From: Vicinamibacterales bacterium
Lineage (GTDB): Bacteria; Acidobacteriota; Vicinamibacteria; Vicinamibacterales; 2-12-FULL-66-21
DNA: 64,000 nt
Assembly (NCBI GenBank): GCA_035758845.1
Contig: DASTVZ010000178.1
Span: 34,713 to 98,712, forward strand
Reading direction: 5' to 3'
Shown here: in pieces, positions 6,698 through 62,540 of the stretch
How the letters are laid out: each line of letters starts with the position of its first letter
Position numbering within the stretch: position 1 is the stretch's first letter
Program-made: the position numbers and the translations under genes
The notes under the pieces: model-generated
Databases searched by the model: none
What the model was told of the DNA's origin: nothing
The model's input: only the letters and a program-made list of their open reading frames with translations

Positions 6698-7720
6698 ATG
6701 CCGCACCCTCCCGCCCTGAAGGCTTCACTCAAGCGGGGCGCCTTCATCGCCGCCGCCAACTGGCCGCTCATTGCCGTGCAGTTCATTGCCGGAGGCACGC
6801 AACAGCTTCTGCTGGCGGTGCCAGTCGTCGGCGGAGTTGCCATGGTGGTGCTGCTGCTCGGGGCGAATGTCGAAGACGTGATGGGCAACGACATGAAGGG
6901 AACCATCCCGCACGTCATCGCGGCACTTCGCGCGAATCCGGTGGCACTCGGGTTGTTTGCCGCCGCCTTCCTCGTCGTTCTTCTCGGAGCCTCGGTGCTG
7001 ACCTTCATTGTCAAAGCCGGAACCGTGTCGATTCTCGCCGCCGCCGAGTCACAGGCCGGACCAATCGAACGACCTCCGCTTCGCCTGGCGGCGCTTCGTC
7101 GCGCAAACCTCACGAACATCGAACCGTTTCTCGAGGGCTGTCGAAACTTAGGACGACGGTACGTCAGGCTCGGACTGTGTCTGCTGCTGGTCTACGGCCT
7201 GACCGCGGCTGCCTGTCTCGGGTTTCTCGCCGGCGGCTACGGGCTTTCGGACAACTTCGGCGTGTTCCTGGGTTGGACCGTTGCTGCGATTCCGGCGCTC
7301 AGCGCGCTGGTTATGTGGATTACTCTCGTCAACTTCTTTTATCTCCTGACCCAGATGGCGATCGCGGTGGAGAACGTCGGCGTTCGCGAGGGAACACGCA
7401 AAGTCGCGCAGTTCATTCGCGCGAGCATTCGCGAAGTCGCTGGGATTTTCGGGGTCGTGCTCCTGCTCGTCGCCATCATGACGGGTGCGTCGATCCTGGC
7501 GACCGCGGGTCTCGGTCTCATCGCGGTGGTGCCATTCGTGGGTCTCGCCATGGTCCCCTTGCAGCTTGGCGCGTGGCTGCTTCGGGGCGTCGTCTTCGAG
7601 TATCTCGGACTGACCGCGCTTGGCGCCTACCTGACTCAATATAGGTTTTACCAGCACAGCCTCGTCACGGTTCACGTGCCCGAGCCAGCAACCGATGTCA
7701 CGGGGCCACGTCTCGCATGA
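6698..7720 (+). CDS. hypothetical polytopic membrane protein
   Basis: 340 aa with several long hydrophobic segments and codon usage like its neighbours. ATGA overlap with the downstream aminotransferase. I recognise no family. Confidence 0.5.
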   Translation: MPHPPALKASLKRGAFIAAANWPLIAVQFIAGGTQQLLLAVPVVGGVAMVVLLLGANVEDVMGNDMKGTIPHVIAALRANPVALGLFAAAFLVVLLGASVLTFIVKAGTVSILAAAESQAGPIERPPLRLAALRRANLTNIEPFLEGCRNLGRRYVRLGLCLLLVYGLTAAACLGFLAGGYGLSDNFGVFLGWTVAAIPALSALVMWITLVNFFYLLTQMAIAVENVGVREGTRKVAQFIRASIREVAGIFGVVLLLVAIMTGASILATAGLGLIAVVPFVGLAMVPLQLGAWLLRGVVFEYLGLTALGAYLTQYRFYQHSLVTVHVPEPATDVTGPRLA

Positions 7721-8982
7721 TCAACTACAACGACTTTCTTTCACAGGCTGCGTCGGGGATGCAGGAATCCGCCATCCGGCGCATGGGCACAATCCTGGCG
7801 CAGAACCGGGACCTGATTTCGTTTGCTCCCGGGTATCCGGCTCCGGAAACGTTTCCGTGGTCCGAGTTCTCGGACATCGCGCATGAACTCTTATCGGGCT
7901 CCCATCCGAACGCGCTCCAGTACGGCGCGACTCGCGGATTCCGACCGTTGCTGGAAATGATCACGACGATCATGGCCAAGCGGGGCGCTCCGACCGAGAT
8001 GAGCCGGCTGCTCATCACGACCGGATCGCAGCAGGGTCTCGATCTGGTCGCGCGCGTCCTCCTCGATCCCGGTGACGTCGCCCTCGTGGAACTGCCGGCG
8101 TACACCGGTGCAATCACCGCGTTTCGGAATGTCCGCGCGCACATGGAGGGTGTTCCACAGGAGGACGACGGCATCGACCTGGCGGCGCTCGACGAAACGC
8201 ATCAGCGCCTGCTGAAAAGCAATCGCCGCGTACGATTCGTGTATGTCGTTCCGAACTTTCAAAATCCCACCGGCATGCTGATGAGCCTGCGCAAGCGGCA
8301 GCAACTGCTCGAGTGGGGCTCGTCGCGGAATGTGCTGATCGTGGAAGACGACCCGTATCGTGAGCTGTACTTCGAAGACTCCGCGAGCGAGGCTGACGTT
8401 CGACCGATCAAGGCCGACGATCGCGAAGGACGGGTCATTTACCTCAGCAGCTTCTCGAAAACGCTCGCGCCTGGCTTCCGCGTCGCGTGGATCGACGCCC
8501 CAGCTCCGATCGCGGTGAAGATCGAAATGGCCAAACAGGCCGGCGATCTCTGCACCGGCGTGTTCGATCAACGCGTCGTTCACGAATGCGGACGACGGGG
8601 AATCCTCGAGCGGCAAGTGCCGCTGCTTCGGCGGCATTACGCTGAGAAGCGCGATGTGATGGTCGCAGCATTCCGGAAAGAGCCTGATACCGCGCTCACG
8701 TGGGCGGATCCGCGCGGTGGTTTCTTCCTCTGGGCGACGCTGCCGCGCGAGCTGAACGCGGACCGCCTGCTCGATCGGGCGGTGAAGCATGGCGTCGTCT
8801 ATGTCGCGGGAAGTGCGTTCTTCGTGAACGACGGCGGCGCAAGTCAGATTCGACTGTCATTTTCCGCGCCGGCCCACGAGCACATTCGCGAGGGCGTTCG
8901 TCGTCTTGCCGAAGCTATTCGCGAGGAGCTGCAGGAGCGGACACAGGCGGACCGGCCAGCACGAGCTTCCACTGGCCGTTGA
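7717..8982 (+). CDS. PLP-dependent aminotransferase, class I/II (2-aminoadipate/aromatic aminotransferase-like)
   Basis: 421 aa with the SFSKTLAPGFRVAW PLP-lysine motif and YVVPNFQNPTG, typical of the LysN/AruH-like fold-type I family. Confidence 0.8.
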   Translation: MINYNDFLSQAASGMQESAIRRMGTILAQNRDLISFAPGYPAPETFPWSEFSDIAHELLSGSHPNALQYGATRGFRPLLEMITTIMAKRGAPTEMSRLLITTGSQQGLDLVARVLLDPGDVALVELPAYTGAITAFRNVRAHMEGVPQEDDGIDLAALDETHQRLLKSNRRVRFVYVVPNFQNPTGMLMSLRKRQQLLEWGSSRNVLIVEDDPYRELYFEDSASEADVRPIKADDREGRVIYLSSFSKTLAPGFRVAWIDAPAPIAVKIEMAKQAGDLCTGVFDQRVVHECGRRGILERQVPLLRRHYAEKRDVMVAAFRKEPDTALTWADPRGGFFLWATLPRELNADRLLDRAVKHGVVYVAGSAFFVNDGGASQIRLSFSAPAHEHIREGVRRLAEAIREELQERTQADRPARASTGR

Positions 8983-18002: not shown

Positions 18003-18186
18003 TGGAATTGCTGACTGTTGATTGCCGATTTGGCGCGGTCTAACCAGCCTTGGCCAAGGCTACGGCGGTCCGCGGAGCGCTTCGCGCGAAGGCGGAAGAC
18101 CGCGCCCTACAGCCATCAATCGGCAATGACATTCGACAATCGGCAATCACAGCAATCAGCAATCGACAATCAGCAATCAGCAATTC
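18003..18186. repeat. heptamer arrays (NGATTGC)x4 and (NNCAATC)x~10 flanking an inserted 79-bp element
   Basis: Left arm 18005-18032, right arm 18112-18186. The arms are mutually complementary in sequence family. Confidence 0.75.
18033..18111 (+). repeat. 79-bp structured repeat, copy 1 (closing stem GCGCGGTCT/AGACCGCGC)
   Basis: Near-identical to 53904-53980. Contains the 16-nt palindrome AGCCTTGGCCAAGGCT and a TCCGC...GCGGA stem. Confidence 0.8.
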
Positions 18187-25145: not shown

Positions 25146-25265
25146 ACGTCGTCTAAGTGGGACAAGGCGCGCCACGGGCGCGCCCGCCGGAGCGGAGCGG
25201 GGCGTTGGGGCCCCGCGAGCGAAGGCGTGGGGGGTCCGCGGGGGCGAAGCCCCCCGGATCAGAAC

Positions 25266-25697
25266 ATGAAGCTGGGCATTGTCGTCGTGACCCACGGCCA
25301 ACTGGCGACCGAACTCGTCAATTCTGCTGAGATGATCGTCGGCGATCTGCCGCATTTCGCGGCGGTCTCCATCGGATGGCACGAGGATGTCGACCACGCG
25401 CGAGAGGGGATCGGCGCCGCGATCGCTCGGGTTGGCGCGTCGGCCGGCGCGACTGACGAGGAGCCGGCCAAGGTACTCGTGCTGACTGATATGTTCGGCG
25501 GGACGCCTGCGAACCTGGCGGTCACGTTCGTCAGCGAACATGTCGAGGTGATTACCGGGGTCAACCTGGCGATGTTGATTAAGCTCGCGCGGCCGCAGAA
25601 GTTCGCGGATCTCGCATCGCTCGCGCGCGACATGCGCGAGCATGGCCGGAACGCCATCTGGGTCGCCTCGGATCTGCTGAAGGGCGAGAAGGCGTGA
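25266..25697 (+). CDS. PTS EIIA component, mannose class
   Basis: MKLGIVVVTHGQLA, with the phosphorylatable His, is typical of EIIA-Man. I trimmed the start to ATG 25266 because the upstream part of the track ORF lies in a GC hairpin region. Confidence 0.8.
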   Translation: MKLGIVVVTHGQLATELVNSAEMIVGDLPHFAAVSIGWHEDVDHAREGIGAAIARVGASAGATDEEPAKVLVLTDMFGGTPANLAVTFVSEHVEVITGVNLAMLIKLARPQKFADLASLARDMREHGRNAIWVASDLLKGEKA

Positions 25698-32854: not shown

Positions 32855-32960
32855 AATCCCTAATCACTGATCACTAATCGTGAACCACTAATCGTGAATC
32901 ACTCATCCTCGAATCCCGAATCGCGGCCAGCAGCCAACAGCGAGGAGCCAGCAGCCACTA
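32855..32960. repeat. two adjacent heptamer arrays, (AATCNNN)x~10 then (GCCANCA)x5
   Basis: 32855-32924 and 32926-32960, in the tolQ-tolR spacer. The second array is the complement-strand form of the GGCTGCT unit. Confidence 0.8.
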
Positions 32961-37069: not shown

Positions 37070-37552
37070 ATGCAGATTGAGATGACGATCAAGGGGCTGA
37101 TGGTCGATCCGATCACGAACATGCCGATCATCATTCTCCGCGACAAGGCGGAGCAGCGCGTGCTGCCGATCTGGGTCGGCGTGTTCGAGGCCAATGCCAT
37201 CGCGCTGCAGATCGAGAACGTCACCACGCCGCGCCCGATGACGCACGACCTGCTGCGCAACGTCATTCAGGATCTGAAAGCCGACATCCAGAAGATCGTC
37301 GTCTCGGATCTGAAGGACAACACCTTCTACGCGTTGATCTATCTGCTGGTCAACGGAGAGTCGATGGCGATCGATGCGCGGCCAAGCGATGCGATTGCCC
37401 TCGCGCTTCGCGCTCGCGCCCCTATCTTCGTCGAGGACACGGTCATCGACAACGCGAAGACGGTCGATTTCGCGCCCGAGAAGCGCGATTCAGAGTTGCA
37501 GAAGTGGCTCGAGAGCCTCGACCCGAACGAGATGGGGAAGTACAAGATGTAA
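37070..37552 (+). CDS. bifunctional nuclease family protein (BFN/DUF151)
   Basis: The LPIWVGVFEANAI...TPRPMTHDLL...RPSDAIALALR pattern. Start trimmed to ATG 37070. Confidence 0.8.
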   Translation: MQIEMTIKGLMVDPITNMPIIILRDKAEQRVLPIWVGVFEANAIALQIENVTTPRPMTHDLLRNVIQDLKADIQKIVVSDLKDNTFYALIYLLVNGESMAIDARPSDAIALALRARAPIFVEDTVIDNAKTVDFAPEKRDSELQKWLESLDPNEMGKYKM

Positions 37553-37557
37553 GTTTT

Positions 37558-37606
37558 GGCTGCTGGCTGCTGGCTGCTGGCTGCTGGCTGCTGGCTGCTG
37601 GCTGCT
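37558..37606. repeat. perfect tandem heptamer (GGCTGCT)x7
   Basis: Counted base by base: seven exact copies. Confidence 0.95.
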
Positions 37607-37647
37607 GCAACGTACTTCGAAAGTTTCCCGCCTTCGACGCGCTCCGC

Positions 37648-37698
37648 TTAGCAATCACAGCAGGAGCCGACAACCGGAAGCCAAGAGCTCGTAAGCCG
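37648..37698. repeat. degenerate heptamer array (NNNAGCC)x~7, approximate complement of GGCTGCT
   Basis: TTAGCAA TCACAGC AGGAGCC GACAACC GGAAGCC AAGAGCT. Confidence 0.6.
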
Positions 37699-37746
37699 GT
37701 ACATTTTGGTCGGGTGCCCTTTTCACTGACAACCCCGCACATTTCG

Positions 37747-37775
37747 TTGACACCCCCGCACACGCTTCCTACAAT
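37747..37775 (+). promoter_or_regulatory. sigma-70-type promoter candidate for parAB (TTGACA-17 nt-TACAAT)
   Basis: TTGACA at 37747-37752 and TACAAT at 37770-37775 with an exact 17-nt spacer, 37 nt upstream of the parA ATG. Confidence 0.55.
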
Positions 37776-37811
37776 GGCCGCACCCCCTGTGAATTCACAT
37801 GCATTGACGCG

Positions 37812-38567
37812 ATGATCGTTGCGATAGCCAACCAGAAAGGGGGCGTGGGGAAAACCACGACCGCGATCAACCTGGCGGCGGCTCTTTCGTTGCGCGGTGC
37901 CCGAACCCTCCTCGTCGATCTCGATCCTCAAGCGAACAGCACGATGTCGTATGTGGACATGTCGACGGTCACGCGCAGCGTGTACGACGCTGTCGCGGAA
38001 GCCTCGTGCAGTTTCGCCGACGTCATCGTCCCGTCGACGCAGCCGAACTTGTGGGTGGCGCCTTCCCGCATCGCCCTGGCGAAGATCGAATCAAAGCTGG
38101 TCGGGGAGCTCGACGCCCATTTCAGGCTCAAGGATCGCCTCGATCCGATTCTCGGCGACTATCCCAACATCGTTATTGATTGCCCGCCGACACTGGGCCT
38201 CCTGACTGTCAACGCCCTGGTCGCGGCAACGCACCTGCTGATTCCGATTCAGTCGTCATATTTCGCGCTCGAAGGGACTGACGATCTGCTCGAGACAATC
38301 GAGAAGGTGCGGACCCGAGCCAATCCGAATCTGCGCATCCTCGGCGTCGTGATCACCATGCACGACAAGCGCACCGCGCTCGGCCGCGACATCCGATCGC
38401 AGATCGACAAGGTATTCGGCAACAAGGTATTCAAGACCGTGATAACCAAGAGCGTTCGCCTGGAGGAGAGCCCGGCCTACAAGGAGTCGATCTTCTCCTT
38501 TGCGCCCGAATCGACCGGCGCCGCCGAGTATTACCGGCTGTGCGAGGAGGTCATGGATCGTGCCTAA
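37812..38567 (+). CDS. parA: chromosome partitioning ATPase ParA/Soj
   Basis: Deviant Walker A (ANQKGGVGKTTT), IDCPPTLG, 251 aa. Confidence 0.93.
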   Translation: MIVAIANQKGGVGKTTTAINLAAALSLRGARTLLVDLDPQANSTMSYVDMSTVTRSVYDAVAEASCSFADVIVPSTQPNLWVAPSRIALAKIESKLVGELDAHFRLKDRLDPILGDYPNIVIDCPPTLGLLTVNALVAATHLLIPIQSSYFALEGTDDLLETIEKVRTRANPNLRILGVVITMHDKRTALGRDIRSQIDKVFGNKVFKTVITKSVRLEESPAYKESIFSFAPESTGAAEYYRLCEEVMDRA

Positions 38568-39381
38568 GCGTGGTCTTCCGCAAACCGTGCGCATGCGGCA
38601 CGACGAGCACTATGTCGAGGCACTGACGAGCTCGGCAGGTACGCCCGTCGGCCGCATGGTTCCGATCGATCAGCTCGATCCGAATCCAAATCAGCCTCGT
38701 CAGGTCATGGGCGACCTTTCGGAGCTGATGGCCTCGATCGCCGAGAAAGGGATCATCGAGCCGATCATCGTCCGACAACGTGGAAGCCGGTTCCAGATTG
38801 TCGCCGGCGAACGCCGATACCAGGCCGCCGTCCAGGTGGGACTGCGCGAAATCCCTATCGTCATCAGGGAAGTCGACGACAACGAGATCATCGAGATTGC
38901 GCTCGTCGAAAACATCCAGCGGAAGGACCTGACGCCGTTTGAGGAATCCGAAGCGCTGCACGCGCTGGCGGAGCGTTGCGGCTACACGCACGAGGACATG
39001 GCGCGACGGCTGGGGAAGTCGCGGACCGCGATTACCGAGTCGTTGTCTCTGAATAATATGCCCGACGAGGTGAAAAACCTTTGTCGGCTGGCCGACATTC
39101 ACTCCAAGTCACTGTTATTACAGATAGTTAGGCAAGGCGACCCGCAGAAAATGGTCGCCTTGATAGAGAAACTCGGCCGCGACGGCGCCATAACCCGTGA
39201 AGCCGTCCGCAAAGAGACCGCCAAACCGAAACCAGGACGGCCGAAGGCCTACATCTTCAGCTACAGGGCACCCACCAAGGCGTTTAAACTGCAGCTGCGG
39301 TTTACGAAGTCCCGGGTCGATCGGGACGAAGTCATCGCAGCGCTGCAGGAAATCATCAAAGAACTGCGCGCCCAGTCGTAA
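38560..39381 (+). CDS. parB: chromosome partitioning protein ParB/Spo0J
   Basis: ParB box (IIEPIIVRQ, VAGERRYQAA) and an HTH (YTHEDMARRLGKSRTAITESL). GTG 38560 overlaps the parA stop by 8 nt. The track start at 38500 is probably too long. Confidence 0.9.
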   Translation: MPKRGLPQTVRMRHDEHYVEALTSSAGTPVGRMVPIDQLDPNPNQPRQVMGDLSELMASIAEKGIIEPIIVRQRGSRFQIVAGERRYQAAVQVGLREIPIVIREVDDNEIIEIALVENIQRKDLTPFEESEALHALAERCGYTHEDMARRLGKSRTAITESLSLNNMPDEVKNLCRLADIHSKSLLLQIVRQGDPQKMVALIEKLGRDGAITREAVRKETAKPKPGRPKAYIFSYRAPTKAFKLQLRFTKSRVDRDEVIAALQEIIKELRAQS

Positions 39382-39412
39382 CTCGCGGCGGCGTGGCGGC
39401 GGGCGGCGGGCT

Positions 39413-39468
39413 GGCTGCTGGCTGCTGGCTGCTGGCTGCTGGCTGCTGGCTGCTGGCTGCTGGCTGCT
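39413..39468. repeat. perfect tandem heptamer (GGCTGCT)x8
   Basis: Eight exact copies plus partial units on both sides (39408-39475). Begins 32 nt after the parB stop. Confidence 0.95.
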
Positions 39469-39514
39469 GGCTGTGATGGTCGCTATGAAAGCGACACGCG
39501 TCAAGTTCTTGCCG

Positions 39515-39627
39515 CGAAGCCGAAACGCGAGGAGCCGGGAGCCGGGAGCCAAGAGCCAGGAGCCGGAAGCCAGGAGCAGCCAGGAGCCGAGAACCGAGAG
39601 CCGAGAGCCGGAATCGGAGCCCGAACC
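39515..39627. repeat. degenerate heptamer array (RGGAGCC)x~15, approximate complement of GGCTGCT
   Basis: AGGAGCC GGGAGCC GGGAGCC AAGAGCC AGGAGCC GGAAGCC and onward. One fixed mismatch per heptad against AGCAGCC. Confidence 0.8.
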
Positions 39628-39819
39628 AGCGTTGTTAGTTAACATAACACTCATTATCAGACCCACGATGTTTGGTCAGAAAAACAGGCCTGTGGAAGGT
39701 TTGTGGACGATGCTTAAGGTTTGCCGCCCTGGCGCCGCTCGGTTGGCGCCGCCTTTTGGCTCCCGGCTCTCGGCTTGGCCGCCAACAGCCAGCAACCGGT
39801 GGATAATCACTAGGTAGCA

Positions 39820-42204
39820 ATGTTGCGAACGATCGACCGGTACATCATCAGGGAAACCATCCCGCCGTTCTTGCTCTCGCTGGTCATCTTCACGTTTCTG
39901 CTGGAAATCCCGCCCGTGATGCGCGACCTCGAGATGCTGGTCGCCAAGGGAGTCTCCTGGCCGGTCGCTGGCCGCATCGTCCTGACCCTGATTCCGCAGG
40001 CCCTGGGGCTTACCATTCCGATGGCCCTGCTGACCGGTCTTCTGATTGGCCTTGGACGTTTGTCCAGCGATCGCGAGACGGTTGCGCTCCTAGCGTGTGG
40101 CGTCAGCCCGCACCGGTTGTTGAGGCCCGTACTCCTGATGGCGACGATCGCGGCGGGCGCAACCCTCTACGTCATGGTCAAGGCGCTGCCCGACGCAAAC
40201 CAGACGTTCCGGGAAATCACCTTCGACGTCATCGCCAAGCAGGTCGAAAACGACGTCCGGCCGCGCGTGTTCTTCGAGAATTTCCCGGGCTGGGTGCTGT
40301 ACGCGCGTGACGAGCCGGAAGACCGCGTCGGCTGGAAAGACATGCTCGTCGCGAACACGGCGAGGCAAGATTCGACAGAACTGTTCCTGGCTTCCCGTGG
40401 CCGGCTGATTGTGAGCCGCCAGGAGCGCCGCGTCGATCTAGTACTGACCGACGGGACGCGGTACGCGACCGGCAAACCGGGTGAGACGCGTACCTATCGC
40501 TTCCCCGGCGATTTGACGATGGCGTTGAACCCGGAGAAGGTGTTCGAGAAAGCCGAATTGCCGCGCGGGTTGACGGAGAAGACGATCGCCGACTTGCAGC
40601 ATGACAGGCATGTGAAACTCACTGGCAACCCACAGCTCTCGCCGCACCCCGAAATCATCTTCATGGAGCAGAAATTCTCGGTGCCGTTTGCCTGCTTCGT
40701 GTTTGCGATCATCGGGCTGGCACTCGGGCTGTCGGTGGCCCGCGATGGAAAAATGGGCGGGTTCGTGATCGGCATCGCCGTCATCTTCGCCTACTACGTG
40801 ATCATGTACCTGGCGGAAGCGCAGACGCAGGGGCACTACCGGGCGATAGAAACTGCCCACCAGCTCAATTCCGCGAACTTTGCGCTCGCCCACCTCGCGC
40901 GCTGGTGGCCGAACATCATCCTGGGGATATTTGGAATCGGCGCGCTCGTCTGGCGCGATCGCTTCGCCAGCCGTCAACTTCCGCGAAGCTTCCCCGTCCT
41001 CGTGCCGCAGCTCGCCAGGAGGTGGCGCGGCCGTCGGGTCGCAAGCGAGCCTGCGTCGATTCCCGAGACTCTCAGTGGCAAAAGACGCAACGTCGTCGTT
41101 GTCGTAAGAGTGCCGAAATTTAAACTCCCGAGTGCAGGCCTCATCGACCAGTACGTGAGCCGGATGTATCTGCGCGTAGTCGCGCTGGCGTTTCTCGCAC
41201 TTGTCGGTCTTTTTTATATCTCCACGTTCATCGACGCGTCCGACAAGCTGTTCAAAGGATCGGCAACGGGTACGATGATCATGTCGTTGCTCGTTTACCG
41301 GACGCCGCAATTCGTCTACTTCGTCATTCCCATCGCGGCACTGCTCAGCGTGCTGGTGACCTTCGGACTGCTCTCGCGCACGAGCGAACTGACGGTCATG
41401 AAAGCCTGCGGGATCAGCCTGTATCGAGTCGCGCTGCCGATCGTCCTCCTGTCGCTGCTCTTCAGCGGCGCATTATTTGCCCTCGACCAGGAGATTCTCG
41501 CGCGCGCCAACCGCCGCGCGACCGCAATCGACGATCAGATCCGCGGCCGCCCTCCGAAGACGTTCAATCCGCTCAATCGTCGATGGATAATCGGCCGCGA
41601 TGGCAGCATTTATCACTACGGATACTTCGATCCGCGACGCGAAACCCTCACGTCTCTGAGCGTCTACCGGCTGGTGCCCAATACGTGGAGGCTCGCCTCG
41701 CAAACCTACTCGGCCACCGCTGAATTTCGGAATGGATGGACGGGCATCAACGGCTGGACCCAGGATTTCACGGGGGCGGCGGTAAAGGGGCGAACGTTCA
41801 GCCGCGAGTCGCTGCCGCTCGAAACGCCGGAGTACTTCAAGACCGAGGACACTGAAGCAGATCTGATGACCGTGGCACAGCTGCGGCGGACGGTCCGAGA
41901 ACTGGCGGCAACCGGCGCGAATGTGGTGCCGCAGCAAGTCGATCTCCAGAGGAAGCTCGCGTTTCCATTCGTCACGTTCGTGATGACTTTGCTCGCCGTG
42001 CCGTTTGGCGTGACGACTGGCCGGCGCGGCGCGCTGTATGGGATTGGTCTCGGGATTGTGCTGGCGCTCACATACTGGTTACTCATGAGCGTCTTCGTTG
42101 CCGTCGGAAAGGCTGGCCTGCTTCCACCACTTCTTGCGGCGTGGACGCCGAACATCATTGTCTCGGCGACCGCCATCTATCTGCTTCTTACGACGAAGAC
42201 CTAG
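39820..42204 (+). CDS. fused LptF-LptG LPS export permease (two YjgP/YjgQ modules)
   Basis: 794 aa. The first module starts IDRYIIRETIPPFLL and the second starts near residue 440 with IDQYVSRMYLRVVALAFL. Each module has 6 TM segments plus a periplasmic beta-jellyroll insert. Confidence 0.8.
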   Translation: MLRTIDRYIIRETIPPFLLSLVIFTFLLEIPPVMRDLEMLVAKGVSWPVAGRIVLTLIPQALGLTIPMALLTGLLIGLGRLSSDRETVALLACGVSPHRLLRPVLLMATIAAGATLYVMVKALPDANQTFREITFDVIAKQVENDVRPRVFFENFPGWVLYARDEPEDRVGWKDMLVANTARQDSTELFLASRGRLIVSRQERRVDLVLTDGTRYATGKPGETRTYRFPGDLTMALNPEKVFEKAELPRGLTEKTIADLQHDRHVKLTGNPQLSPHPEIIFMEQKFSVPFACFVFAIIGLALGLSVARDGKMGGFVIGIAVIFAYYVIMYLAEAQTQGHYRAIETAHQLNSANFALAHLARWWPNIILGIFGIGALVWRDRFASRQLPRSFPVLVPQLARRWRGRRVASEPASIPETLSGKRRNVVVVVRVPKFKLPSAGLIDQYVSRMYLRVVALAFLALVGLFYISTFIDASDKLFKGSATGTMIMSLLVYRTPQFVYFVIPIAALLSVLVTFGLLSRTSELTVMKACGISLYRVALPIVLLSLLFSGALFALDQEILARANRRATAIDDQIRGRPPKTFNPLNRRWIIGRDGSIYHYGYFDPRRETLTSLSVYRLVPNTWRLASQTYSATAEFRNGWTGINGWTQDFTGAAVKGRTFSRESLPLETPEYFKTEDTEADLMTVAQLRRTVRELAATGANVVPQQVDLQRKLAFPFVTFVMTLLAVPFGVTTGRRGALYGIGLGIVLALTYWLLMSVFVAVGKAGLLPPLLAAWTPNIIVSATAIYLLLTTKT

Positions 42205-42207
42205 AAA

Positions 42208-42293
42208 TCGGGATCCGTTGTCCGGGATCCGGGATCCGGGCTGCGTCTCGAGATCGATACGGAAAACGGATCCCGGACTCCGGATCCCGGCAG
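42208..42293. repeat. CGGGATC/GATCCCG heptamer-armed hairpin, copy A
   Basis: The left arm 42208-42240 and right arm 42266-42293 pair at 21 of 25 positions. Confidence 0.85.
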
Positions 42294-46111: not shown

Positions 46112-46169
46112 AGTCCTCCTCCAGTACGCGGTTGTGGCGTGTACTAAATAGACGAACCGCGTGGTGGTT

Positions 46170-46251
46170 GGTTCCGGGTTCCGGGATCCGGGATCCGAAT
46201 CGATCCACCGAGGGCGCGGATCACGGATACCGGACCACGGATCACGACTTA
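46170..46251. repeat. GGWTCCG / CGGAYNA heptamer-armed hairpin, degenerate relative of the CGGGATC family
   Basis: Left heptads at 46170-46197 and right heptads at 46217-46251. Follows the xerD stop on the minus strand. Confidence 0.65.
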
Positions 46252-46255
46252 TCCG

Positions 46256-47134
46256 CTACTTTCGTGGATGGAATTTGTCGTAGGCCGCCCGCAGCCGCGC
46301 CTCGAGCACGTGCGTGTAGATCTGCGTCGTCGACAGATCGGCGTGGCCGAGCATCATTTGTATCATTCGCAGATCGGCACCGCGCTCGAGCAGGTGTGTC
46401 GCAAACGAATGCCTGAGTACGTGAGGACTGAGATCGCGCGTGACGCCGGCTTTGATTCCGTACTCTTTCAGCACTTTCCAGAAGCCGACGCGCGAGAGTG
46501 GGCCGCCGTCACGCGCATTGACGAACAGCCACGGTGAACTCTTCTTACGAAGCAGCGCCGGGCGGCCGTCGCGTAGGTATCGCCGCACCCAGTCGGCCGC
46601 TTCATGTCCGAGCGGTACCATCCGCTGCTTGTCCCCCTTGCCAATGCAGGTCAGGTAACCCTCATCGAGATTCAAGTCACCGGCGCGCAACGCGACGAGT
46701 TCCGACACGCGAAGGCCGGTCGCATACAGCACTTCGATCAACGCTTTATCGCGCAGTCCGCGTGGCGTTGACGGATCCGGTTGCTCGAGCAAACGGTCGA
46801 CTTCCTCGAGTGAGAGAAACTTCGGCAACGCGGCCCATGCGCGAGGCGGCCTGAGGTCGTCGGCGGGACTGCTGTCGCGCTTCTGCTCCGCGGCGATGAA
46901 ACGATAGAAACCGCGGACGCACGCGACCGTGCGCGCGACCGAACGCGGCGCCAGTCCTGACGACATCAACTGCCGGACGAAGGCTTCCAGATCCTGACGC
47001 TGAAGCTCGCCGACGGTCGAGCTTCGTTTATCGGCGAACTCCGCCAACTGCGCCAGATCGCGCGCGTAACTCTCGACCGTATTTGGCGACATGCGCCGCA
47101 CGTCACGGAGATAGTTGAGGTACTCGTCGATCAT
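46256..47134 (-). CDS. xerD: site-specific tyrosine recombinase XerD-like
   Basis: The C-terminal catalytic region (HVLRHSFATHLLERGADLRMIQMMLGHADLSTTQIYTHV) resembles XerD more than XerC. Start trimmed to MIDEYLNYL (ATG 47134). Confidence 0.85.
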   Translation of the reverse strand: MIDEYLNYLRDVRRMSPNTVESYARDLAQLAEFADKRSSTVGELQRQDLEAFVRQLMSSGLAPRSVARTVACVRGFYRFIAAEQKRDSSPADDLRPPRAWAALPKFLSLEEVDRLLEQPDPSTPRGLRDKALIEVLYATGLRVSELVALRAGDLNLDEGYLTCIGKGDKQRMVPLGHEAADWVRRYLRDGRPALLRKKSSPWLFVNARDGGPLSRVGFWKVLKEYGIKAGVTRDLSPHVLRHSFATHLLERGADLRMIQMMLGHADLSTTQIYTHVLEARLRAAYDKFHPRK

Positions 47135-47228
47135 GGCGCTAAGTTTGACACCACTGTGACCGAGGAGTAGTGTAAGCGGTTGCACCATACAGCCAGCGCG
47201 CCACGCTACGCCGTAGACGGACGTATTC

Positions 47229-48194
47229 ATGCCGAGCCATTCCAAGTGGGAATTGCTTCCCACGGAAGCCATTAACCCAGACAGTCTTTCGGTCGACAAA
47301 GCTCCAGTTCCCGACATCATCGATATGGTGGTGAACGAGGATCGGAAAGTCGTCGCAGCCGTTCACAAAGAACGCCAGCGTATCGCGCATGGTGTCGAAA
47401 TCATCACCCAGGCGCTTCGCAAGGGCGGCCGCGTCATTTTCGTCGGCGCCGGCACCAGTGGCCGTCTCGGTGTCGTCGAGGCATCCGAGATGCCGCCGAC
47501 GTTTGGCACCAGCCCGACGCTCGTACAGGCGATCATGGCCGGCGGACAGGAAGCAGTCTTTCGCGCAAAGGAAGGCGTCGAAGACAACTATGAAGAGGGG
47601 GCGCGAAGCCTGGCGCGGCTTCGACTCGGCAAGAAGGACGTCGTGATCGGCGTGTCCGCGAGCGGCATGACGCCGTTCGTCCGTGGCGCGCTGACGCGTG
47701 CGCGGAAGGCCGGCGCAAAGATCATCTTCGTCACCTGCTGGCCCGGGTCCGAGCTGCAGAACTTCGTCGATCTCCAGATCGCGCCGGCCGTTGGCCCGGA
47801 GATCATCGCGGGATCGACGCGGTTGAAAGCGGGCACCGCGACCAAGATGGTGCTCAACATGCTCACCACCATCGCCATGATCAAGGTCGGGAAGACTTAC
47901 GGAAACCTGATGGTCGACGTCCAGACCGGGTCGGAGAAACTGAAAGACCGCGCTCGTCGCATTGTCGTCCTGGTCACCGGTGTCGAGTACGACAGGGCCG
48001 ATGCGCTGCTCAAGCGCGCAAAGTGGAACGTCAAGGCGGCCATCATCATGCAGCGTGCGGACCTGACGCTTCCGCAGGCGCTTCGGCGGTTAAGAAAGGC
48101 GCACGATTCTGTGCGCGAGGCGATCGGTGAAGAAGCCGACGCGCACCTCAGAGGGTTGCTTGAAGCCTCTCAGCCGCGCCAGCGTCCAGCATGA
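47229..48194 (+). CDS. murQ: N-acetylmuramic acid 6-phosphate etherase
   Basis: SIS domain (FVGAGTSGRLGVVEASEMPPTF, GVSASGMTPF, STRLKAGTATKMVLN). Confidence 0.9.
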   Translation: MPSHSKWELLPTEAINPDSLSVDKAPVPDIIDMVVNEDRKVVAAVHKERQRIAHGVEIITQALRKGGRVIFVGAGTSGRLGVVEASEMPPTFGTSPTLVQAIMAGGQEAVFRAKEGVEDNYEEGARSLARLRLGKKDVVIGVSASGMTPFVRGALTRARKAGAKIIFVTCWPGSELQNFVDLQIAPAVGPEIIAGSTRLKAGTATKMVLNMLTTIAMIKVGKTYGNLMVDVQTGSEKLKDRARRIVVLVTGVEYDRADALLKRAKWNVKAAIIMQRADLTLPQALRRLRKAHDSVREAIGEEADAHLRGLLEASQPRQRPA

Positions 48195-49872: not shown

Positions 49873-49910
49873 GAGTTGATGATGCGGATCGTACCACGGG
49901 TGAATCCTGT

Positions 49911-50003
49911 CGGGATCCGTTGTGCGGGATCCGGGATCCGATCTCTCGCATATACGCCGTGACGATGCGCACCACGGATCCCGGACACCGGATCCCGGCA
50001 GGC
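49911..50003. repeat. CGGGATC/GATCCCG heptamer-armed hairpin, copy B
   Basis: The arms are almost identical to copy A (one substitution per arm). The loop sequence is unrelated. Confidence 0.85.
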
Positions 50004-53900: not shown

Positions 53901-53903
53901 GCG

Positions 53904-53980
53904 GCGGGGTCTAACCAGCCTCCGCTAAAGCTACGGCGGTCCGCCGACGCCTTGGCGAAGGCGGAAGACCCCGCCCTACA
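53904..53980 (+). repeat. 77-bp structured repeat, copy 2 (closing stem GCGGGGTCT/AGACCCCGC)
   Basis: Same orientation and architecture as 18033-18111, with paired base changes in two stems. Confidence 0.8.
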
Positions 53981-61214: not shown

Positions 61215-61387
61215 CCCATCTTTAGATCCGAGGGGCTTCGCCCCTCGGACTCCCCTTCACGCTCTCTCGCGAGCCGCTTCGTCGGCTCGCTCCGTTCGCG
61301 TGGCTCGCTTCGCTGCGCTCGCGTCTTTCTTCGCCGCTCTTGCCTCGCCATAGCAAGTGTCATCCTACGATGGCGAGACGAGTCGGG

Positions 61388-61975
61388 TTATTTCCCGACG
61401 CACTCCTGACCGGACAGCCGAATCGTTTGCCGGCCACGGCCGTCGACATACTCCATGACCACCGACTCGACGCCAATCTTCACGAGTCGATACTGACCTG
61501 AGATGATGTCCCCCTCGCGACCGCGCATAGTACTCCGACAATCACTGAATGCCGCCAACTTTCCACCACCCTTTTCCTCCAACAGCCCGATGTACTTTAA
61601 CGGGATGGCCGGCGGAGGCGGCGGTGGGGGCGGCACCGTCGACTCCGGCGTCGGCGGCGGCTCTGGCTTCGGCTGCGGCGGCGGAGGTGGCGGCGGCGGC
61701 TTCACGTAGAACCGAAACGGGTTCCGCTCGCTCGACTCGGCGTCCGGACGCGGCTCGCTCAGCGCCTTCAGGTGCACCTCGAGATCCCCCGGCTGCACAC
61801 TCTCGACGGTCTTCCCCCTCTGTGTCGCCCGGGGATTAGACGGTGCGGGTCCGGGCGCGGCTGGCTTTCCTACGGGCAGCCACGAGATCAGCGCCACGGC
61901 AACAACGATCGCCAAGGCGACGAGGAGCCACGGTCTCGGCCGGCCCGAAGGGCGGGTTGACGCGTCAGTTTCCAT
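61388..61975 (-). CDS. PilP-like / GspC-HR-like pilus assembly protein with a poly-Pro linker
   Basis: One TM (PWLLVALAIVVAVALISWL), runs of Pro, and a C-terminal beta-domain (LKYIGLLEEKGGGKLAAFSD...GDIISGQYRLVKIGVESVVMEY) like the PilP fold pattern. The start is ambiguous (61975 or 62017). Confidence 0.5.
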   Translation of the reverse strand: METDASTRPSGRPRPWLLVALAIVVAVALISWLPVGKPAAPGPAPSNPRATQRGKTVESVQPGDLEVHLKALSEPRPDAESSERNPFRFYVKPPPPPPPPQPKPEPPPTPESTVPPPPPPPPAIPLKYIGLLEEKGGGKLAAFSDCRSTMRGREGDIISGQYRLVKIGVESVVMEYVDGRGRQTIRLSGQECVGK

Positions 61976-62540
61976 TCGCTCCGGTCCGGTAGTACGTGGC
62001 GATGTCGACGCTGACATTCAACCCGCGATTTTCAATCTCGCTCTGGGTAAGCTCGACATTTTCGAGGACGAGAAATTCCGGGGCGGTTTCCAGCTCATGG
62101 ATGAAGCGACGGATGTTCCGGTACTCACCCGATAGCGACGCCCGATACGTGAACTTCACCAGCTGACTATCCCGCTGCGGTTGCGGATCGGACGTCTCGC
62201 GCTCGAGTCGCAGATTGGACTTTTGCGCCAGCTGCTCGATCCGAAGAAACGTCGCCCGTCGTGCGGCGCTCAAATCCGGCGGCAACACGTCGCTGTAGAA
62301 CTTCTGCAGCTCCTGATCGGCCTGTCCTTTTCCTGTTACCGTCGCGCGCGCCGCGTCGTAATCACGTTTCGCGGCATGGAGCGCGGTCGTTGCCGCCTTC
62401 GACTGCTGCTCCCCACCCGCCACTTTTTTCGACAGTGGATAGACCACAATCGCGAAGAGCGCGATGTTCACCACGAGTGCGATCACAATCGGCAGAATCA
62501 GTCTGCGCTTCTCGGCCAGCACACGACGCGCATCTGTCAT
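61965..62540 (-). CDS. PilO/GspM-like pilus assembly protein
   Basis: 191 aa. N-terminal TM, a coiled coil and a C-terminal ferredoxin-like part. Located between pilN-like and pilP-like genes, with an ATGA overlap with the pilN-like gene. Confidence 0.65.
   Translation of the reverse strand: MTDARRVLAEKRRLILPIVIALVVNIALFAIVVYPLSKKVAGGEQQSKAATTALHAAKRDYDAARATVTGKGQADQELQKFYSDVLPPDLSAARRATFLRIEQLAQKSNLRLERETSDPQPQRDSQLVKFTYRASLSGEYRNIRRFIHELETAPEFLVLENVELTQSEIENRGLNVSVDIATYYRTGANGN

Follow-up and report, generated by a model that had tools for sequence, protein, structure and literature searches.

Identical heptamer arrays on either side of parAB in a Vicinamibacterales genome are probably neighbouring copies of a lineage-wide repeat hairpin

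In a 64-kb stretch of a Vicinamibacterales (Acidobacteriota) genome, which we refer to as the window, parA and parB lie between two exact arrays of the heptamer GGCTGCT. Do these arrays serve the partition operon, or did they arrive there for reasons unrelated to it? A preliminary description of this DNA had suggested that they could insulate parAB transcription, act as a substrate for recombination or copy-number change, or form a non-canonical protein-binding array. Our comparison with related loci indicates no partition-specific device here; the arrays are better described as two copies, close together, of a rapidly evolving hairpin-forming repeat that follows many genes in this lineage of soil bacteria. 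The features concerned, numbered along the window, are listed below; tandem arrays were identified with Tandem Repeats Finder (TRF) and a periodicity scan.

32923-32957, minus strand: degenerate GGCTGCT/GGCTCCT array (TRF 76%; families I3-I11)
37550-37552: stop codon TAA of the BFN (bifunctional-nuclease-domain) gene
37558-37606, plus strand: (GGCTGCT)x7, exact heptads, 5' arm of a weak upstream hairpin (TRF)
about 37640-37700, plus strand: degenerate NNNAGCC-like heptads, decayed 3' arm of the upstream hairpin (duplex energy, D4 identity)
37747-37775, plus strand: parA promoter TTGACA-17-TACAAT, kept in relatives, 140 nt downstream of the upstream array
37812-38567, plus strand: parA (Pfam AAA_31/CbiA/ParA; NCBIfam)
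38560-39381, plus strand: parB, ParB_N + HTH_ParB (Pfam; TIGR00180, 146 bits against a cutoff of 58), stop codon TAA at 39379-39381
39387-39473, plus strand: period-7 tract, 5' arm of the downstream hairpin (TRF, periodicity scan)
39474-39514, plus strand: loop of the downstream hairpin, holding a 6-bp stem-loop (GTCGCT 39479-39484 / AGCGAC 39490-39495)
39515-39627, plus strand: RGGAGCC array, about 16 degenerate heptads, 3' arm of the downstream hairpin (TRF, fold, duplex)
39637-39664, minus strand: putative dif (chromosome dimer resolution) 28-mer, reading GGGTCTGATAA-TGAGTG-TTATGTTAACT
39758-39779, plus strand: third short array, GGCTCCC GGCTCTC GGCTTGG C (duplex with the RGGAGCC array)
46256-47320, minus strand: xerD (XerD equivalog, 364.6 bits against a cutoff of 329.6), 6.6 kb from dif

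The upstream array, which TRF places at 37557-37607 (7.3 copies, 100% match), begins 5 nt past the BFN stop. On the other side of parAB, TRF reports 9.1 copies at 39410-39473, again with a 100% match; eight exact units in phase (39413-39468) begin 31 nt past the parB stop and are preceded by a GGCGGCG-like period-7 lead-in at 39387-39411. The two arrays have the same orientation, are 1855 nt apart, and have 51 nt in common at 100% identity (family D1). The preliminary description had counted seven exact units before the parA promoter and eight in the same orientation after parB, and both counts stand, as does its claim of one fixed mismatch per heptad between GGCTGCT and the downstream RGGAGCC array, since each heptad of the two arms gives 6 pairs and one G.G mismatch. 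The TRF core of the RGGAGCC array spans 39531-39611 (11.1 copies, 76% match).

The same description saw two large hairpins around parAB, but only the downstream one is significant. The segment 39375-39650 folds at -152.8 kcal/mol (z = -6.3), and its arm duplex of -106.1 kcal/mol was matched by 3 of 1000 random window segments and by none of 500 shuffles. The upstream hairpin is marginal: the fold of 37545-37720 is not better than dinucleotide shuffles (z = 0.13), and 30 of 1000 random segments pair as well as its arms do (-54.6 kcal/mol). TRF makes no call on the upstream partner array, which is too degenerate, but a part of it, 37665-37688, matches the downstream partner array's reference copy at 79% identity (family D4). 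A further GGCTGCT copy reported on the opposite strand is indeed present but degenerate; it lies directly past the exbB stop (32958) and represents the same local unit family beside an unrelated gene. The short array at 39758-39779 and part of the RGGAGCC array could together form a perfect 22-bp stem (-51.7 kcal/mol; 2 of 1000 random segments as good), which would enclose dif.

Related loci were obtained in two sets. A ParB-based scan, with one genome per species, gave 80 loci, nearly all of them from metagenome-assembled genomes of Vicinamibacterales/Acidobacteriota with ParB identities of 76-97%, and a metagenome scan gave 80 further loci (ParB identity 73-97%). Those named individually carry the labels L001, L003, L004, L006, L009, L081, L084, and L085. 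Genes were called with a simple codon-usage open reading frame (ORF) caller trained on conserved genes, for which stop codons are reliable, starts are approximate, and a few genes are missed. An exact-sequence look-up of ParA, made to locate the same strain elsewhere, had no hit on record. By Pfam, the gene order around the arrays in the window is RecN-like, MiaB-like, BFN, ParA, ParB, and fused LptF/LptG, and the order MiaB-BFN-ParA-ParB-LptFG is kept among relatives.

After parB, an array is found in 62 of 119 distinct spacers (52%), with 25 of the 62 starting no more than 8 nt from the stop, and the units are unrelated between species (e.g., GCTCGGG, CTGCCAG, CGGGACT, CAGCTTC, TAACTTC, ACTCCCA, and TTCCAGT) despite ParB identities of 75-97%. 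Spacers without an array at this position are barely structured (mean z = -0.86) and come down to 29-31 nt; because such a spacer can shrink to 29 nt, the parB 3' array is dispensable. Between BFN and parA, an array is present in 15 of 106 loci, and in relatives the promoter may instead be preceded by a plain hairpin, by a canonical terminator, by another heptad pair, or by no such element. The conserved parA promoter region of L009, for example, comes almost directly after the BFN stop with no array between them. Both parAB flanks carry arrays in 8 of the 106 loci, and in 4 of these the units are related (at most 1 mismatch).

Exact GGCTGCT arrays are found elsewhere only in L004, at the upstream site and in the same place as the window array (6.6 units, one of them a variant), and in L009, at the downstream site, where 12 units begin directly at the parB stop. 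These are clearly orthologous to the two arrays of the window; L001 and L006 have related degenerate versions. The preliminary description had proposed checking whether the same heptamer flanks parAB in related genomes, and the outcome is divided: it is kept in L004 and L009 but absent in most. It had also reasoned that its proposals would fail if GGCTGCT arrays were common at unrelated loci and missing around parAB in relatives, which is in part what we find, with a GGCTGCT-type array at the exbB 3' end and the unit absent at the parAB of most relatives. A parAB-specific role is not supported by this comparison, given how few loci have arrays on both flanks, how the units differ between species, that the BFN-parA array is uncommon, and that the parB 3' spacer can be a hairpin-free 29 nt.

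The period of these arrays, rather than their sequence, is what connects them to the rest of the lineage. The periodicity scan recovered 14 period-7 tracts in the window, compared with 0-4 for other periods among 4-13. In 1.23 Mb of DNA, comprising the window and the 160 related loci, there are 285 period-7 arrays compared with 2-90 for periods 5, 6, and 8-12. The density in this DNA, about 1 per 4-5 kb, supports the earlier impression of a genome full of such repeats. About 90% of the arrays (185/205) are intergenic, and 31% have their start no farther than 10 nt from a stop codon, where random intergenic placement gives 9.8 +/- 2.1% (maximum 17%). When spacers of at least 60 nt are considered, 29% of co-directional and 26% of convergent spacers have an array, compared with 1 of 79 divergent spacers. 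Within the window, arrays directly follow dnaE (15179), rpoN (22575, overlapping its TGA), tolB, exbB, BFN, parB, lptFG, and xerD, and almost all fold as hairpins with heptad arms. One hairpin, at 49910-50001, is an exception to the avoidance of divergent spacers: the spacer that holds it appears to be divergent, with a minus-strand gene for a BadF/BcrA-type ATPase on one side and a plus-strand GHL10 gene on the other, and a TTGACA-containing stretch comes after the hairpin.

When two arrays are neighbors in one spacer, 29% of such pairs are inverted complements and 26% are direct copies, scored at no more than 1 mismatch per unit, whereas arrays from different loci show either relation in 3% each. 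Canonical units number 137 overall. GGCTGCT contains no G-tracts, and no single G-rich, quadruplex-capable unit is dominant; the two arrays that TRF matches at 100% (7.3 and 9.1 copies) are head-to-tail tandem heptamers in the manner of the intergenic heptameric simple sequence repeats (SSRs) discussed below.

Evidence of how such arrays change comes from L084 and L085, which represent one species in two metagenome samples. They differ by 2 substitutions over 7 kb, and their only internal indels, of 7 nt and 14 nt, fall inside two different arrays (L084 positions 1505 and 4156). Whole-heptad gain or loss is therefore at least as frequent as substitution, and replication slippage is indicated. 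Copy numbers of GGCTGCT also vary between loci, with 7.3 in the window versus 6.6 in L004 at the upstream site and 9.1 versus 12 in L009 at the downstream site. Some sequence changes are matched in both arms, as in L006, where the 5'-arm variants GGCGACT and GGCTACT have the exact 3'-arm complements AGTCGCC and AGTAGCC. In the window, the 5' arm departs at one fixed position from GGCTCCY, the exact complement of RGGAGCC, and GGCTCCY persists as the third array at 39758-39779. A perfect stop-proximal arm facing a decayed distal arm was considered as a general rule and rejected over 17 array pairs (purity 7 versus 8, length 10 versus 5, p = 0.07); in these pairs, the two arms likewise do not differ in purity or in purine content. 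There was also little support for a tendency of short-read contigs to break within arrays: 27 end within 200 nt after parB, 3 of them clearly within a period-7 tract.

Units are distributed locally as well. Unit families are clustered along the window (permutation p = 0.002), with ATTGCTG-type arrays at 15.2 and 18.0 kb, GGCTGCT at 32.9, 37.6, and 39.4 kb, and CGGGATC at 42.2, 46.2, and 49.9 kb. Across all loci, and with sharing defined as exact identity up to rotation and strand, a unit is shared by 8 of 60 pairs of spacers 1.5-4 kb apart, 4 of 40 pairs 4-8 kb apart, and 0 of 42 pairs beyond 8 kb. The share for 1.5-8 kb is 12%, the rate between loci is 2.1%, and the excess for neighboring spacers has a binomial p of 1.4e-6. 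The CGGGATC hairpin modules (42208-42293, 46167-46250, and 49910-50001) are spaced about 3.7-3.9 kb apart and have arm irregularities in common around unrelated loops; between 42208 and 49910, the 5' arms reach 97% identity and have even an irregular GTTGT interruption in common (D3/D5). Because the irregularities are shared while the loops are unrelated, we infer that arms were copied or converted rather than generated by independent slippage. The heptad indels, the units shared by neighboring spacers, and the common irregularities of some arms all agree with the ongoing slippage or conversion that the preliminary description had suspected.

We think it probable that the GGCTGCT pair consists of neighboring copies of a lineage-wide intergenic heptamer microsatellite hairpin. 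In this class of repeat, a 7-nt unit would be arrayed at or just past a stop codon, often with a second array of approximately complementary heptads after it, and the DNA or transcript of the paired arrays could fold as a long imperfect hairpin. In Vicinamibacterales the period stays at 7 while the unit varies freely, near-identical strains differ by whole heptads in copy number, units turn over between species, and spacers a few kb apart tend toward the same unit, sometimes with the same arm irregularities. Arrays may be copied or homogenized locally by gene conversion or template switching. The parAB bracket would then reflect the presence of both flanking spacers, 1.8 kb apart, in one local family that may also take in the exbB 3' flank 4.6 kb upstream. 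Neighboring spacers share exact units more than expected, which would account for identical arrays on either side of parAB. The combination of a perfect arm, a decayed partner, and one mismatch per heptad can be explained by the sweep of a variant unit through the 5' arm, in which an ancestral GGCTCCY gave rise to GGCTGCT and slippage spread the variant, leaving the fixed G.G mismatch. Any effect on parAB would at most be that of a modulatory 3'-end hairpin, protecting the transcript 3' end or acting as a pause site; a role of this kind is possible, though it would be modest and dispensable at the parAB site. The arrays themselves do not appear to be partition sites. For parAB, the result is deflationary in that the repeat bracket would be a by-product of a lineage-wide repeat dynamic.

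Several considerations weigh against this explanation. Slippage alone leaves the period of 7, the starts at stop codons, and the origin of the complementary array unexplained. The statistics on local sharing rest on phylogenetically related loci and crude gene calls, and a cleaner but small and underpowered test of unit sharing across lptFG gave 4 of 11 against a null of 17%, which is not significant. Copy-number polymorphism was seen in a relative (L084/L085) and not in the arrays of the window, and the arrays may have a real regulatory effect on parAB.

A regulatory effect would be expected if the hairpins were selected 3'-end elements with heptads merely as their mode of construction, serving in mRNA 3' protection, polymerase pausing or termination, or promoter insulation, with the parA promoter and dif/lptFG as the insulated parties here. 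Enterobacterial repetitive extragenic palindromic (REP) sequences and bacterial interspersed mosaic elements (BIMEs) provide the model: they are found past stops in co-directional and convergent spacers and out of promoter-only spacers, form hairpins, and are individually dispensable. The arrays occupy the same 3'-end niche and avoid divergent spacers, but REPs have a genome-wide conserved sequence and a dedicated REP-associated tyrosine transposase (RAYT), whereas only the 7-nt period is conserved here and growth is by tandem gain and loss of units. We regard selection of this kind as possible though doubtful, and it is partly compatible with the microsatellite explanation. The strong tie to gene 3' ends, the near-absence from divergent spacers, the starts next to stop codons, about three times as frequent as under random placement, the high stability of the downstream hairpin, and the arm complementarity kept despite unit replacement between species (including the matched variants of L006) all speak for it. 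However, sense and antisense folds are equally stable (37 versus 34 of 71, Wilcoxon p of about 1), and thus lack the strand asymmetry that RNA-level selection via G.U pairs would be expected to leave. Arm purity and purine content lack polarity, direct array pairs are about as common as inverted ones, roughly half of the species do without an array after parB and have barely structured spacers there, and L009 has none between the BFN stop and the parA promoter region. Loops of 12-170 nt with no T-run argue against intrinsic terminators; a scan of 37400-39900 for Rho-independent terminators found no terminator-like site at either array, where the loops measure 41 nt and about 41-46 nt and neither 37700 nor 39627 is followed by a T-run. 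The modules might instead be small mobile elements, similar to REPs or to miniature inverted-repeat transposable elements and ending in inverted arms of heptad repeats, that insert past stops and hop nearby, with the parAB flanks as two insertions of one element. This would fit the homology of both arms between the flanks (D1, D4), the CGGGATC modules with their common irregularities and unrelated loops, and the fall of unit sharing with distance, but it is unlikely in view of the 137 units and the absence of any lineage-wide consensus, conserved end sequence, or visible target duplication. Local copies do share irregular arms (D3/D5), but copy number shifts by whole heptads in place, orthologous arrays keep their site across species (L004, L009), and no transposase or RAYT-like gene was present among the 23 window proteins scanned.

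The remaining alternatives give the parAB location a meaning of its own. A non-canonical array that ParB or some other partition factor binds as a centromere-like site or an operator would be in keeping with the position beside parAB, the heptad period, and the lack of a canonical parS, as the 16-bp palindrome TGTTNCACGTGAAACA has no match at 3 or fewer mismatches in the 64 kb. Heptads have such uses on plasmids, where the omega protein of pSM19035 binds heptad repeats and P1 parS has heptamer boxes. These sites resemble the arrays in having 7-bp units, direct or inverted, beside partition genes, but their sequence is fixed and co-evolves with a binding protein of their own. The unit of the present arrays is wholly different between species whose ParB proteins are 75-97% identical, both-flank arrays are restricted to 8 of 106 loci, the ParB of the window is of the standard chromosomal type (ParB_N + HTH_ParB), and arrays of this kind also come after dnaE, rpoN, exbB, lptFG, and xerD. 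The protein-binding array of the preliminary description is thus highly improbable. So is its recombination substrate, in which the identical direct repeats of 49-56 bp would act as a cassette by which parAB is excised, duplicated, or changed in copy number. Perfect identity over 51 nt, in direct orientation and 1.8 kb apart, suffices for RecA-dependent recombination, but same-unit arrays (at most 1 mismatch) on both flanks are limited to 4 of 106 loci and are not conserved, and an excised circle would be without an origin. The order BFN-parA-parB is kept at every locus examined, although the loci were fetched through ParB and deletions would be invisible among them. Finally, the downstream arrays could be tied to dif and the terminus by indicating direction to FtsK, shaping the Xer synapse, or marking scars of Xer integration. 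A gap of 9 nt separates the end of the RGGAGCC array from the XerD arm of dif, the complementary array beyond dif makes the 22-bp stem possible, and the parB-dif spacer varies from 34 to 1443 nt. We nevertheless consider such a link very unlikely, as arrays of the same kind occur window-wide and far from dif, about half of the species have none beside it, and the orientation of those that flank it is inconsistent (inverted in the window, direct in L003 and L009). A polarity resembling that of FtsK-orienting polar sequences was ruled out because flank orientation differs between species.

Among known systems, the closest relatives of these arrays are the heptamer repeats of Xanthomonas and Nostoc. 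Intergenic heptameric SSRs have been described as (GGGAATC)n in Xanthomonas and (GGGGAYT)n in Nostoc/Anabaena (Rehm et al. 2015, PMC4692102). The Xanthomonas repeat lies between aligned ORFs, at most 50 bp away from the stop codon or overlapping it, and about 70-75 convergent pairs per genome are capable of forming stem-loops; its length varies between species at a kept site, its function is unknown, and slippage has been proposed (PMC4692102). The arrays described here are similar in having a 7-nt unit in intergenic DNA, mostly between co-oriented and rarely between divergent ORFs, in their proximity to stops, in convergent pairs able to form stem-loops or cruciforms, and in a copy number and sequence that vary between close species while the site is kept. 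They differ in that the Xanthomonas and Nostoc genomes each use essentially one G-rich, quadruplex-capable unit throughout, whereas we find at least 137 units, most of which are not quadruplex-capable, and these change by spacer cluster and by species at a higher density (about 1 per 4-5 kb sampled). The short tandemly repeated repetitive heptanucleotides of cyanobacteria (Calothrix/Anabaena) and the TAACTGA direct repeats of Beggiatoaceae (PMC4679880) are also intergenic tandem heptamers of lineage-specific abundance and unknown function. TAACTGA, however, is a single unit located mainly upstream of starts and almost never inverted, while the arrays here lie past stops, use many units, and are frequently paired with a complement. 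As relayed by these later papers, among the long SSRs of many prokaryotes the heptanucleotide class is the most abundant, an excess attributed to polymerase slippage (Mrazek et al. 2007, via PMC4679880 and PMC4692102). Our literature search returned nothing that links Vicinamibacter with tandem repeats or Acidobacteria with heptamer repeats.

The bacterial heptamer excess has been known since 2007 and remains unexplained, and the Vicinamibacterales offer an unusually rich natural experiment, with many units, fast turnover at orthologous sites, heptad polymorphism, and unit sharing between neighbors. These features could help to tell slippage from conversion and from selection. In practice, the arrays are a concern for the assembly and strain typing of these abundant soil bacteria. 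A bolder proposal, which we offer as speculation and would not expect to hold, is that Vicinamibacterales possess an undescribed set of genome-wide "heptad hairpin" modules in which only the period is invariant, the arms stay complementary as units are replaced, and the modules, with irregular arms but unrelated loops, are copied between gene 3' ends a few kb apart. If true, this would point to a protein or an active process able to measure heptads and to copy locally, rather than to passive slippage, and to a REP-like layer of genome organization that rests on period instead of sequence.

The dif site next to the downstream array was not mentioned in the preliminary description, and its position just downstream of parB, with xerD near, may interest chromosome biologists more than the repeats do. 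It lies 9 nt past the last RGGAGCC heptad (39627) and 255 nt past the parB stop, and it agrees with E. coli dif in 20 of 28 positions, among them 10 of the 11 in the XerD arm (reference sequences from PMC3025954). The site is found once per locus, in the same orientation and between parB and lptFG, in 77 of 81 sequences, and its central hexamer is the least conserved part. GC skew is greater to the left of dif than to the right in 57 of 60 loci, with the right side negative in 59 of 60, and the cumulative GC skew of the window peaks at about 36-40 kb. Two 11-bp arms, a 6-bp center, a single copy, a skew switch, and an encoded XerD are together what would be expected of a dif/XerCD system. Because dif, the conserved GC-skew switch, and a nearby xerD coincide, these sequence features place parAB at the replication terminus, and not near the origin, across this order. 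Heptad arrays fill the variable parB-dif spacer and flank dif in relatives too, with direct copies in L003 and L009. Segments of the form GGATCCCGGACCACGGATCCCG, similar to the CGGGATC-type modules of the window, flank dif in L003 and L004.

An origin of replication was also considered for this spacer and rejected because the skew polarity indicates a terminus; the sole near-consensus DnaA box (39798-39806) overlaps GATAAT, the likely -10 element of lptFG. That GATAAT (39802-39807) is 12 nt upstream of the lptFG ATG (39820) and is kept as GATAATG in several relatives, which suggests a near-leaderless lptFG mRNA. At 794 aa, the lptFG product fuses LptF with LptG and has two LptF_LptG domains. 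Between dif and the lptFG promoter there is also a hairpin (39730-39751) that resembles a terminator and has a T-run. The conserved element after the arrays, identified here as dif, was also considered as a small RNA and discarded as such, since RNAalifold found no consensus structure for either strand. A conserved block, CCTGTGGAAGGTTTGTGGAC (39689-39708), is located about 25 nt past dif and has two TGTGGA motifs 11 bp apart; it could be a regulator site, a DnaA-box-like pair, or an accessory site for Xer/FtsK. L001 (compared over 7032-7945) and L081, which belong to the same species, are near-identical up to the dif core and wholly divergent from the XerC arm onward (GACGC versus GACCC), where in L001 unrelated DNA replaces the conserved block and lptFG. 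This divergence could be due to Xer-mediated integration at dif (by an integrative mobile element exploiting Xer) or to an assembly chimera.

No tRNA or transfer-messenger RNA was found, and Rfam gave no match at the gathering threshold over the whole window. At an E-value threshold, 37540-39830 produced only spurious long-hairpin matches to microRNA precursor models (MIR8622 at 29.8 bits, where 197 are required, and mir-284). Other repeats of the window are of different kinds. A dispersed GC-rich repeat of about 80 nt with its own hairpin is present at 18032-18111 and 53903-53980 (82-96% identical; D7/D17), and its first copy lies in the loop of a heptad hairpin at 18004-18185. Another GC-rich palindromic repeat, with a GGGGCTTCGCCCC core, is found at 25214-25268 and 61217-61271 and also after parB in L004. 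A period-3, CGG-rich tract at 61610-61700 (TRF, 30 copies, 64%) is covered by a minus-strand ORF (61388-62017) and probably represents coding sequence of low complexity.

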